From Rubrivivax sp. (lineage in GTDB: Bacteria; Pseudomonadota; Gammaproteobacteria; Burkholderiales; Burkholderiaceae_C), in NCBI GenBank assembly GCA_045864135.1, contig BTVT01000023.1, forward strand, positions 1,964-65,963: DNA of 64,000 nt, written 5' to 3'. The position numbers were made by a program, and so were the translations under genes. Shown piece by piece: positions 45,312-48,722 of the stretch. Every line of letters starts with the position of its first letter. Positions within the stretch are counted from its first letter, which is position 1. Below the pieces are notes generated by a model. That model was given only the letters and a program-made list of their open reading frames with translations, was not told the origin of the DNA and ran no database searches.

Positions 45312-47954
45312 TCAGGCCCGCTCGCCGACCCAGCCCGCCACCGAGGCCAGCGCCTTGGGCAGCGCGGCGGCGTCGCTGCCGCCGGCCATCGCCAGATCCG
45401 GCTTGCCGCCGCCCTTGCCGCCGACCTGGGCGGCGACGAAGTTGACGAGCTCGCCGGCCTTCACGCGGCCCATCGCGTCGGCGGTGACGCCCGCGGCGAG
45501 CTGCACCCTGCCGCCCTCGACCGCGGCGAGCACGATGGCCGCGCTCTTCAGCTTGTTCTTGAGCTGGTCCAGGGTCGTGCGCAGCGTGGCCGCGTCGGCA
45601 CCGTCCAGGCGTGCGGCGAGCACCTTCAGGCCCTTCACGTCGACCGCCTTCGCGGCAAGCTCGTCGCCCTGCGCCGAGGCCAGCCGCCCCTTGAGCGCGG
45701 TGACTTCCTTCTCGAGCGTGCGCGCGTGCTCGAGCACCGCATCGACGCGGCCGTCGACTTCGGCGGGTGCCACCTTCAGGCGTGCGGCCACGCGTTCGAG
45801 CCTGCCTTCGAGCTGCTGCAGGTAGGCCAGCGCGTTGTCGCCGGTGACCGCCTCGACGCGACGCACGCCCGCAGCGATCCCGGTCTCGGCGACGATCTTG
45901 AAGAGGCCGATGTCGCCGCTGCGCTGCACGTGCGTGCCGCCGCAGAGCTCGCGGCTCGTGCCGATGTCGAGCACGCGCACCTCGTCGCCGTACTTCTCGC
46001 CGAAGAGCATCATCGCGCCGAGCTTCTGGGCTTCTTCCAGCGGCAGCACGCGCGCCTGCGTCGCGGTGTTGGCGAGGATCTCGGCGTTGACGATGGCCTC
46101 GACCTGCGCGATCTGCGCCTCGCTCATCGGGTGGTTGTGCGCGAAGTCGAAGCGCGTGCGCTCCGGCGTCACGAGCGAACCCTTCTGCTGCACGTGGGCG
46201 CCCAGCACCTCGCGCAGCGCCTTGTGCATCAGGTGCGTGACGCTGTGGTTGCGCATGGTGCGCGCGCGCGGCTCGGCATCGACGCGGGCGACGAAGCCGT
46301 CGCCGAGCTCGACCTCGCCCTCGACGATGCGGCCCTGGTGGCCGTGCACCGCGGCCTGGATCTTCACCGTGTCCTCGACCAGCACGCGCGCGCGCGCGTT
46401 GCGCAGCTCGCCGCGGTCGCCGACCTGGCCGCCGCTCTCGGCGTAGAAGGGCGTGTGGTCGAGCACGACGACGACGTCGTCGCCGGCCTTGGCCCGGGTC
46501 ACCGCGCTGCCGTCGACGTAGATCGCCACCACCTTGCTGTGCTCGCACACCAGGTGCTCGTAGCCGTGGAAGTCGGTGTCGTCGCCGGTGTAGGAAAGCC
46601 CGGCCGCCATCTTGAACTTCGCCGCGGCGCGCGCCTGTTCGCGCTGGCGGCCCATCGCGGCGTTGAAGCTGGCCTCGTCGACGACGACGCCGCGCTCGCG
46701 GCAGACGTCGGCGGTGAGGTCCAGCGGGAAGCCGAAGGTGTCGTGCAACTTGAACGCGGTCTCGCCGTCGATCTGCTGCGCGCCCTGGGCGAGCGCCGCT
46801 TCGAGGATCTCCATGCCGTTGGCGATGGTCTGGAAGAAGCGCTCCTCCTCGACCTGCAGCACTTCGGTCACGCGCACCGCCTCGCGGCGCAGCTCGGGGT
46901 AGGCCTCGCCCATCTCGGCGGCCAGCGGCAGCACGAGTTTATGGAAGAAGGGCTTGCGCGCGCCCAGCTTGTAGCCGTGGCGGATGGCGCGGCGGGCGAT
47001 GCGGCGCAGCACGTAGCCGCGGCCCTCGTTGCCGGGGATGACGCCGTCGGTGACGGTGAAGGCGCAGGCGCGGATGTGGTCGGCGATGACCTTGAGGCTC
47101 GGCGTCTGCAGGTCCTTGACCCAGTCGGCGTCACGCGCCCCGCCGGCATCCAGCACCGCGTCGCGCGTGGCCGCGAGCAGGGTCGCGAAGAGGTCGATCT
47201 CGTAGTTGCTGTGCACATGCTGCAGCACCGCGGCCAGGCGCTCGAGGCCCATGCCGGTGTCGACACTGGGCTTGGGCAGGCGGTGCATCGTGCCGTCTTC
47301 GGTGCGGTTGAACTGCATGAAGACGTTGTTCCAGATCTCGATGTAGCGGTCGCCATCCTGCTCCGCGCTGCCCGGCGGGCCGCCCGCGACCTCGGGGCCG
47401 TGGTCGTAGAAGATCTCGCTGCACGGGCCGCAGGGGCCGGTGTCGCCCATCATCCAGAAGTTGTCGGACTGGTAGCGCCCGCCCTTGTTGTCGCCGATGC
47501 GCACGATGCGCTCGGCCGGCAGGCCGATCACCTTGTGCCAGATGTCGTAGGCCTCGTCGTCCTCCTCGTAGACGGTGGCCCACAGGCGCTCGGGCGGCAG
47601 CTTGAAGTAGACGGTCAGCAGCTCCCAGGCGTACTTCAGCGCGTCGTGCTTGAAGTAGTCGCCGAAGCTGAAGTTGCCGAGCATCTCGAAGAAGGTGTGG
47701 TGCCGCGCCGTGTAGCCCACGTTCTCGAGGTCGTTGTGCTTGCCGCCGGCGCGGATGCACTTCTGCGCCGTCGCCGCGCGCTGGTAGGGCCGCTTGTCGA
47801 AGCCGAGGAACACGTCCTTGAACTGGTTCATGCCCGCGTTGGTGAAGAGCAGCGTCGGGTCGTCGCCCGGAACGACCGGGCTGGAAGCGACGACCTGGTG
47901 CCCCTTGGAGGCGAAGTAGTTCAGGAAGGTGGAGCGGATCTCGGCGGCTTTCAT
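45312..47954 (-). CDS. alaS: Alanine--tRNA ligase
   Basis: [31 protein letters not shown], HxxxH editing motif, ELCGGTH, GGKGGG. Confidence 0.98.
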
Positions 47955-48403
47955 GTCGGCACCAGGGTCGAAGGATCGGGATAGAGACGGATGCCCGCGC
48001 GCGGCGCGGCGCGCACCATGTCGGCATCGAAGGTCGCCAGCGCCGCGCGTTGGCGCAGCGCCAGCTCGAAGTAGAGGCTGTCGTAGGCCGAGAGCCCGTA
48101 GGCGCGCGCGCATTCCAGGTTGCGCGGCACGTCGATGGGCTGGGCATCCACCGTCGGCGCAAGCGCGAGGATGGCGGCCAGCGCCTGGCCGACGCGCTCG
48201 GGCGGCGCCGCGCCGCGGCGCTCGGCCTGCACCAGCGCGTTGGCGATCTCGGCGTTCCAGATCGGCGGCACGATCAACTCACAGTCGCGCAAGGCCTCCA
48301 GGCCCGCGGCTGCCGGACGCGGCGCGCCGGTGTGCAGCACGTAGCGCAGCACGAAGGAGGCGTCGAGCACGACGGCGTCCGGCGCCGGATCGGTCGGCTT
48401 CAC
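47951..48403 (-). CDS. PIN-domain (VapC) toxin
   Basis: [26 protein letters not shown]; its stop overlaps the alaS ATG. Confidence 0.88.
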
Positions 48404-48645
48404 GCGCGGCCCTGCCCGATCAGCTCGGCCAGCGTCGCGCCCTGCACCTCGATCGGCTCGAAGGCCTGCAGCGCGGCCAGGGCACGCTCGCGTTGGCGAT
48501 GGCGCGCACCCGCCGCGTGCGCCACCGGCACGATGCGGGCCACGGGTTTGTTGTGGCGCGTGATCACCACCTCGTCGCCGCGCTCGGCGCGCGCGATGAG
48601 TTCGGAGAGATGCGTCTTGGCCTCGAACAGGCCCACGGTGCTCAT
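48400..48645 (-). CDS. Phd/YefM-type (VapB) antitoxin
   Basis: [37 protein letters not shown]. Confidence 0.92.
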
Positions 48646-48663
48646 GCTCTGCGCCTTGGCTCG

Positions 48664-48682
48664 TCTGGTTGATTCAACCAGA
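48664..48682 (-). promoter_or_regulatory. Operator palindrome of the vapBC(-alaS) promoter
   Basis: Perfect TCTGGTTGA-t-TCAACCAGA, abutting a TAAAAT -10 box on the minus strand. Confidence 0.7.
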
Positions 48683-48722
48683 TTTTAGATCGACGCAGCG
48701 GCGGCCAGGTCCCACGGCGCGA

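Follow-up and report, generated by a model that had tools for sequence, protein, structure and literature searches.

A Phd-VapC toxin-antitoxin module between the only recognisable promoter and alaS in Rubrivivax and related Burkholderiales

In a 64,000-nt stretch of DNA from a Rubrivivax sp. (contig BTVT01000023.1:1964-65963, from a 4.1-Mb, 80-contig assembly; this whole stretch is called the window below), the gene of the alanyl-tRNA synthetase (AlaRS), alaS, directly follows vapB and vapC, the antitoxin and toxin genes of a type II toxin-antitoxin (TA) module. Comparison of this locus among relatives lends strong support to the idea, put forward in a sequence-only reading of the window, that alaS lacks a promoter of its own and would be the third cistron of the TA promoter. 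We regard it as likely that vapB, vapC and alaS form one operon with one promoter, autorepressed by VapB or VapBC at a perfect dyad that adjoins the -10 box, and that alaS is translated largely by re-initiation at an ATGA overlap with vapC.

The module in related genomes

About 1.6 kb upstream of alaS was taken from 112 loci in ~110 other species-level genomes of the genus, and carriers of the module were called among these loci by iterated hidden Markov model search. In 43 of the ~110 other species, a phd-PIN pair with the orientation of alaS lies directly 5' of it. Together with the window's own locus this gives 44 TA-bearing loci, 42 of which have enough upstream sequence to be informative, and 69 TA-less ones. 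The 4-nt overlap of vapB and vapC recurs in nearly all of the 43 relatives, where vapC starts with GTG, TTG or ATG. An ATGA overlap of vapC and alaS (-4 nt) is present in 16 of the 44 loci, namely the window's own and 15 others that belong to several toxin classes; otherwise a gap of 10-119 nt separates the two genes. Outside the genus, a scan of all species genomes with the VapB alignment found ~50 further Burkholderiales loci with the module (carriers are Ottowia, Rhodoferax, Pseudorhodoferax, Variovorax defluvii, Methylibium and Piscinibacter), in which alaS follows wherever the contig is long enough, with one exception. Cultured strains with the arrangement include Pseudorhodoferax aquiterrae KCTC 23314, Pseudorhodoferax sp. 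Leaf267, Variovorax defluvii JCM 17804 and Ottowia massiliensis. More distant VapB relatives, from other phyla, are ordinary two-gene TA pairs without alaS, and distant plasmid-borne relatives are annotated as VapC/Phd pairs. The gene order seen upstream of alaS in the window is thus a recurrent one, both in the genus and in other genera. The suggestion that its linkage to alaS makes the TA module hard to lose found no support: about 60% of the species of the genus are without it, and one of them (G164, see below) carries a deletion scar.

The exception mentioned above is L188 (Methylibium sp. Root1272), in which a homologue of the VapB N-domain (70% identity) and a PIN gene are found with no alaS within 3 kb, possibly as a free-standing copy. 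Another peculiar case is a metagenome-assembled genome (G126; 76% complete, 3% contamination) with two alaS loci, L094 (C51) and L107 (C156), one of them TA-less and one with a class-A module and the ATGA overlap, which reflects either a true duplication or a mixed bin.

Probable position of the alaS promoter

The sequence cTAnAAT, followed immediately by CTGGTTGAWTCAACCA, lies 26-65 nt before vapB in every one of the 42 informative TA-bearing loci, and the -10 bases T, A, A, A and T, which adjoin the 5' side of the dyad, are invariant throughout. Between the starts of vapB and alaS, TAnAAT was found in none of the 44 loci and the looser [TG]AnAAT in four, at non-conserved positions, and no -10-like box lies in any gap between vapC and alaS, some of these gaps being too short to hold a promoter in any case. 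The alaS-specific promoter inside vapC, against which the sequence-only reading had set its proposal, was sought in this way and did not appear. Of the 69 TA-less loci, 53 have TAnAAT no more than 250 nt 5' of the alaS start codon, and most others have GATAAT. The gene upstream of vapB is divergent in most relatives, in which transcription must consequently start within the intergenic region, and the -10 box and the dyad are the sole conserved element of that region. Given that no promoter-like box is found 3' of the vapB start and a conserved one is found 5' of it, the TA module separates alaS from the only promoter that can be recognised.

A TA-less locus, L027 in the one-contig 6.7-Mb assembly of G164, bears directly on this point. 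It has CTACAAT followed by a decayed dyad, TTGATTGATCCAACC, with three mismatches. The leader has likewise been kept, as have the six initial codons of a class-B vapB (GTGGAAGCCATCGGCCTG), and the fusion is in frame, 42 nt ahead of the alaS ATG. This locus is a natural deletion of vapBC and shows loss of the module to be possible. No other TAnAAT occurs within 250 nt of alaS in G164, so that the former vapB promoter, as the sole candidate, must serve alaS there. A search for TA remnants in the 69 TA-less loci gave this one convincing scar, the other short blastn matches being uninterpretable. In the closest TA-less relative of the window (G008, locus L025; lysR, 138 nt, alaS) the intergenic sequence is not alignable with the window and yields no boundaries of an insertion.

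Two further features of these upstream regions are worth recording. In six TA-less loci (L026, L030, L037, L038, L061 and L083) TAGAAT ends just 7 nt before the alaS ATG; the alaS mRNA would then be leaderless or nearly so, and alaS in this genus may not generally need a Shine-Dalgarno (SD) sequence. Furthermore, CACTGTAGC and ACGATAGCAAG recur 25-45 nt upstream of the -10 box of vapB or alaS, at variable distance (e.g. L020, L028, L043, L047 and L027), and on the other strand resemble a -10 box (TACAGT / TATCGT) of the divergent neighbour gene.

Exchange of the toxin

Residues 1-42 of VapB (...ITRHNKPVA) are nearly the same in every locus. The rest of the module behaves very differently: for the VapB tail and the toxin at least five classes can be told apart, assigned by comparison with class representatives, that share only ~30-40% identity, and the tail sequence changes together with the class of the toxin. 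At the nucleotide level, identity between classes amounts to 70-83% in the 5' half of vapB and 78-86% in alaS, but only to ~40-53% in the vapB tail and vapC, which in effect can no longer be aligned. If the toxin-class labels are placed on a tree built from AlaRS residues 1-230, 26 changes are required, compared with a minimum of 5; branches with good support by themselves call for 7 changes in class A (that of the window), 8 in B, 5 in C, 5 in C2 and 2 in D. This conflict between class labels and AlaRS tree indicates that cassettes have been exchanged many times between conserved flanks. Promoter, operator and VapB N-domain on one side and alaS on the other form the stable flanks in Sphaerotilaceae and Comamonadaceae, and the VapB tail together with the PIN toxin behaves like an exchangeable cassette.

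The exchange also bears on what the linkage may be for. A connection between cleavage of tRNA by the toxin and the charging of tRNA-Ala, as had been suggested from the window, becomes less likely because at least five PIN toxin classes share the slot, and only the DNA-binding half of VapB and its operator are constant. That repressor and operator stay constant suggests rather that the conserved property is control of alaS transcription, or else hitch-hiking by position.

Could alaS nevertheless be transcribed independently, from a promoter inside vapB or vapC, with its AUG used uncoupled and the TA pair as a mere neighbour or a selfish insertion at a recombination hotspot? We consider this improbable. 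It is true that sequence scans can miss non-canonical promoters, and that the proposed vapB promoter itself has no -35; initiation with a weak SD sequence or none is common in these GC-rich genomes, and coupling may be dispensable for alaS, given that certain TA-less relatives appear to be leaderless. Yet the TAnAAT box that is missing between the vapB and alaS starts has a counterpart beside alaS in almost all TA-less relatives, a promoter embedded in toxin classes that cannot be aligned would need a separate origin in each class, and the scar in G164 leaves alaS with the vapB promoter as its only candidate.

The dyad and its link with vapB

In the window, the perfect 19-bp dyad TCTGGTTGAATCAACCAGA begins with the final T of the -10 box TAAAAT; the sequence-only reading had placed both elements upstream of the antitoxin gene. 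The dyad occurs a single time in the window, with none expected (100 shuffles, up to 3 mismatches allowed), and its conserved 15-bp core, TGGTTGAWTCAACCA at 48666-48680, occurs once in the 4.1-Mb genome even if 2 mismatches are allowed. These results come from direct reading of the sequence and pattern search; a general repeat scan of the DNA did not list the dyad.

Among the 42 informative TA-bearing loci, each position of the core is conserved in 35-41. The TA-less alaS promoters have at least four mismatches to it in 68 of 69 cases, the remaining one being the decayed copy in G164. At least 25 of 401 sampled genomes of the GTDB family have an exact copy of the 15-bp operator, and the exact-match loci fetched from other genera precede a vapB-PIN pair in 10 out of 10 cases, with alaS visible behind nine and the tenth on a truncated contig. 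Only exact matches were counted as evidence, as matches with one mismatch are mostly chance occurrences inside unrelated coding regions. Judged by this distribution, the dyad is an element of VapB and not of alaS. It adjoins the -10 box, is found strictly together with vapB and is the predicted site at which VapB would bind and repress.

The alternative is that the dyad serves another factor (e.g. AlaRS), or acts as a stem-loop at the 5' end of the mRNA, and that the TA genes are no more than passengers in the alaS leader. Putney and Schimmel (1981) reportedly described the site bound by AlaRS in E. coli as a palindrome flanking the start site. The E. coli enzyme represses alaS in an alanine-dependent, alanine-enhanced manner by binding near its own transcription start, upstream of it (PMC6918089). 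Judging from its sequence, the dyad could also fold into a 7-bp stem right at the transcript's 5' end. An operator of the E. coli kind would be expected on alaS promoters regardless of the other genes present, whereas the dyad tracks vapB, is missing from nearly all TA-less alaS promoters and has decayed where vapB was lost. Dyad and VapB N-domain are moreover alike in remaining nearly invariant while the toxin varies over five classes, and a dyad lying over the -10 box and the start site is the standard operator layout of type II TA systems. We therefore hold a non-VapB role of the dyad to be quite improbable.

The TA-less promoters have a recurrent element of a different kind: in about ten species (L036, L050, L053, L059, L064, L070, L075, L104 and others) a common leader, CCTATAATCAAAGGTTCTTGAAAATCAAGCACTTGG, lies just 3' of the alaS -10 box. 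It holds two overlapping palindromes, CTTGAAAATCAAG and CAAGCACTTG, and is partly similar to the right half of the VapB operator (ATCAACCA in L036 and L073). This leader may be a different regulatory site of alaS or a relic of an old operator.

Proposed operon

According to the model that we favour, vapB, vapC and alaS are one transcription unit read from the TAAAAT promoter. The N-terminal Phd/YefM domain of VapB would bind the dyad, which abuts the -10 box and covers the expected transcription start, and would repress all three genes, with VapC a probable co-repressor, by analogy with other type II TA systems. This would tie the output of the single AlaRS gene to TA autoregulation: depletion of VapB, for example by proteolysis when translation falters, would derepress the whole operon including alaS. 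The alaS gene should be the last of the unit because the next gene downstream is convergent.

At the level of translation, the claim that the three genes are chained by two ATGA overlaps needs one amendment: the overlap of vapC and alaS is indeed ATGA, but that of vapB and vapC, likewise 4 nt long, is GTGA, since vapC starts with GTG. The statement that alaS has no SD sequence is essentially right, as all that precedes its ATG is a GGTG, 5 nt upstream, which is lost in close relatives (GATG, GCTC). A stop/start overlap combined with no other SD than this non-conserved GGTG is the sequence pattern of a coupled cistron. With an ATG that overlaps the vapC stop and no real ribosome-binding site, ribosomes that end vapC probably re-initiate on alaS at the ATGA, possibly helped by SD-independent initiation. 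No RNA structure above shuffled controls was found at the vapC/alaS junction (fold z = 0.47), and the Rfam search of 45000-49000 returned one sub-threshold chance match and no known RNA element.

The start of alaS shows a further peculiarity in other loci. The 11 nt after the "AT" of the start codon (GAAAGCCGCCG) are repeated directly upstream, offset by -11 or -12 and with at least 9 of 11 matches, in 20 of 113 loci, compared with 1 of 113 in a control region (e.g. L028, L040, L054, L086, L115 and L118). The upstream repeat covaries with the coding copy (GCAGCC with GCAGCT), and some loci gain a tiny upstream open reading frame (MKAA...). Possible readings of the repeat are an SD-like element, a duplication and a regulatory upstream frame.

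Several points weigh against the operon model. There is no conserved -35 at the vapB promoter across the loci of the genus, and a simple sigma-70 scan of 45000-49900 called no minus-strand promoter at all, so that the assignment of TAAAAT as -10 box rests on conservation; the single sigma-70-like site of the scan (49696-49724, plus strand) lies between the lysR-type gene and the acyl-CoA dehydrogenase gene. The scan is uninformative here, given that even the conserved -10 box has no -35. A non-canonical promoter inside vapC, beyond the reach of sequence scans, is possible. The usually tight repression of TA promoters fits oddly with a housekeeping synthetase, and strict 1:1 coupling would imply that VapC is made at least as much as AlaRS, which is a puzzle of stoichiometry. 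In this genome, finally, the lysR-type gene upstream is co-oriented, and since no terminator was found, read-through could bypass the control of initiation.

That such read-through supplies much of the vapBC-alaS transcription in this genome, and that autoregulation at the dyad matters little, is very improbable in our view: the lysR-type gene does stop just 41 nt from the dyad, with no terminator-like site in the scan of 45000-49900, but LysR-type regulator genes are usually weakly expressed, a repressor bound to the dyad could also act as a roadblock, and the -10 box and dyad are kept in most relatives although the upstream gene is divergent there.

The operon model can be taken one step further, to a tentative reading that we think rather unlikely. 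The VapB N-domain and the dyad might be a dedicated controller of alaS in Sphaerotilaceae and Comamonadaceae, a TA circuit recruited to sense translation capacity: a slowdown of protein synthesis would deplete the labile VapB, derepress the operon and raise the synthesis of AlaRS. The PIN toxin and the VapB tail would then be an interchangeable retention cassette, which enforces that the regulator is kept and which was replaced repeatedly by recombination between the 5' half of vapB and alaS.

Toxin and antitoxin

VapB matches the Phd/YefM profiles well above their cut-offs (Pfam 52.1 bits vs 29.8; TIGR01552 46.9 bits vs 20.8). The Pfam match spans residues 1-42, the N-terminal DNA-binding domain, and the C-terminal toxin-binding tail is variable, so that sequence comparison finds the DNA-binding N-domain and toxin-specific tail of a type II VapBC antitoxin. 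The PIN match of VapC also exceeds the Pfam cut-off, and its AF2 (AlphaFold) model (predicted local distance difference test score 83) has PIN/VapC proteins as its Foldseek top matches in the PDB without exception: PAE0151, PAE2754 and VapC15/11/20 of M. tuberculosis. Sequence searches of the PDB with VapC alone or as a profile gave marginal matches only. The class-1 alignment shows no variation at the acidic residues D14, E52, D108 and D126, and the other classes have aligned acidic residues as well. Within the window's class the ratio of nonsynonymous to synonymous substitution rates (dN/dS) of vapC is 0.10-0.30, by which measure vapC is under purifying selection and the toxins are not decaying. 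With a PIN toxin that has the four acidic residues and a small antitoxin gene directly upstream and overlapping, the vapB-vapC part is, by sequence, a textbook Phd-VapC type II module.

Relation to known systems

The module resembles type II VapBC systems with Phd/YefM antitoxins in its 4-nt gene overlap, in the division of the antitoxin into N-domain and toxin-specific tail, in a palindrome, the predicted operator, overlapping the promoter and in the four acidic residues of the PIN domain. A canonical VapBC module is, however, a self-contained bicistron, whereas here the third cistron is an essential, single-copy aminoacyl-tRNA synthetase gene without a recognisable promoter of its own, whose start in this genome overlaps the toxin stop, and the association has been kept across two Burkholderiales families while the toxin cassette was swapped. 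Other chromosomal TA modules stand in an operon or tight neighbourhood with core genes, such as mazEF with relA in E. coli and the VapBC-type ntrPR by ntrBC in Sinorhizobium meliloti. To our knowledge, the TA genes of these systems do not lie between a promoter and an essential translation gene, and no aminoacyl-tRNA synthetase is involved.

The autoregulation of E. coli alaS is alike in that a repressor encoded in the same transcription unit acts at the promoter or start site (PMC6918089). The E. coli repressor is AlaRS itself; the predicted repressor here is VapB or VapBC, and the dyad segregates with vapB, not with alaS. Operons of the fabT type offer another parallel. [quoted passage not shown] Full-text literature searches, whose coverage is incomplete and whose silence is absence of evidence only, returned no description of a vapBC-alaS operon; the one mention of co-expression of PIN and alanyl-tRNA synthetase concerns an archaeal COG2454 protein. 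What appears unusual is the architecture: an essential single-copy synthetase gene as apparently promoter-less third cistron, kept across Sphaerotilaceae and Comamonadaceae behind a swappable toxin cassette.

The purpose of chromosomal TA modules has long been an open question. In the present case a single TA lineage has kept a fixed address in dozens of genera: it stands in the gap between the promoter and the coding sequence of an enzyme essential for translation. Its repressor domain and operator are almost invariant, its toxins exchangeable. If the operon model is true, AlaRS supply would be set by TA autoregulation, which would make a concrete and testable link of TA circuitry to translation capacity. 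The locus is also a natural system for the study of TA cassette swapping by recombination and of TA loss, the in-frame deletion scar included. Annotation pipelines will not reveal that alaS in these genomes is missing a promoter of its own.

Layout of the locus

The positions that the sequence-only reading had given all hold (Table 1). On the minus strand the order is lysR-type gene, an intergenic region of 77 nt with the -10 box and the dyad, vapB, vapC and alaS, and the convergent gene 3' of alaS encodes a BTP/PACE transporter.

Table 1. Features of the vapB-vapC-alaS locus, in window coordinates
Feature	Position	Strand	Basis
lysR-type gene (LysR/GcvA-like regulator)	49739..48723	minus	library profile matches (Pfam, NCBIfam)
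-10 box TAAAAT (genus consensus cTAnAAT)	48682..48687	minus	conservation across genus loci
perfect 19-bp dyad TCTGGTTGAATCAACCAGA, predicted VapB operator over expected transcription start	48664..48682	.	sequence and conservation
SD-like AAGG, 8 nt 5' of vapB ATG	48654..48657	minus	sequence reading
vapB, Phd/YefM-type antitoxin, 81 aa	48400..48645	minus	Pfam PF02604, 5.7e-14; NCBIfam TIGR01552 (phd_fam)
GTGA overlap of vapC GTG start and vapB TGA stop	48400..48403	minus	sequence reading
vapC, PIN-domain toxin, 150 aa	47951..48403	minus	Pfam PF01850, 9.7e-9
ATGA overlap of alaS ATG start and vapC TGA stop	47951..47954	minus	sequence reading
alaS, alanyl-tRNA synthetase, 880 aa	45312..47954	minus	Pfam tRNA-synt_2c, tRNA_SAD, DHHA1

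The product of alaS is a class II bacterial AlaRS with catalytic, editing (tRNA_SAD) and C-terminal DHHA1 domains all present; its tRNA-synt_2c match (1.5e-212, 707 bits) covers profile positions 1-550 of 552. The gene is the single full-length copy in the genome, the two other matches being short AlaX-like fragments. Its reading frame is open for 53 codons 5' of the true start, across vapC, up to an ATG at 48113 (47954-48113, minus strand), and a gene caller that favours the longest frame could consequently annotate an AlaRS of 933 aa and hide vapC. Many long spurious open reading frames occur on both strands of the window and reflect its high GC content. The GcvA-like lysR-type gene is divergent from an acyl-CoA dehydrogenase gene (~49755-50950, plus strand; Pfam), and the two (48723-50950) look like an ordinary pair of regulator and target.

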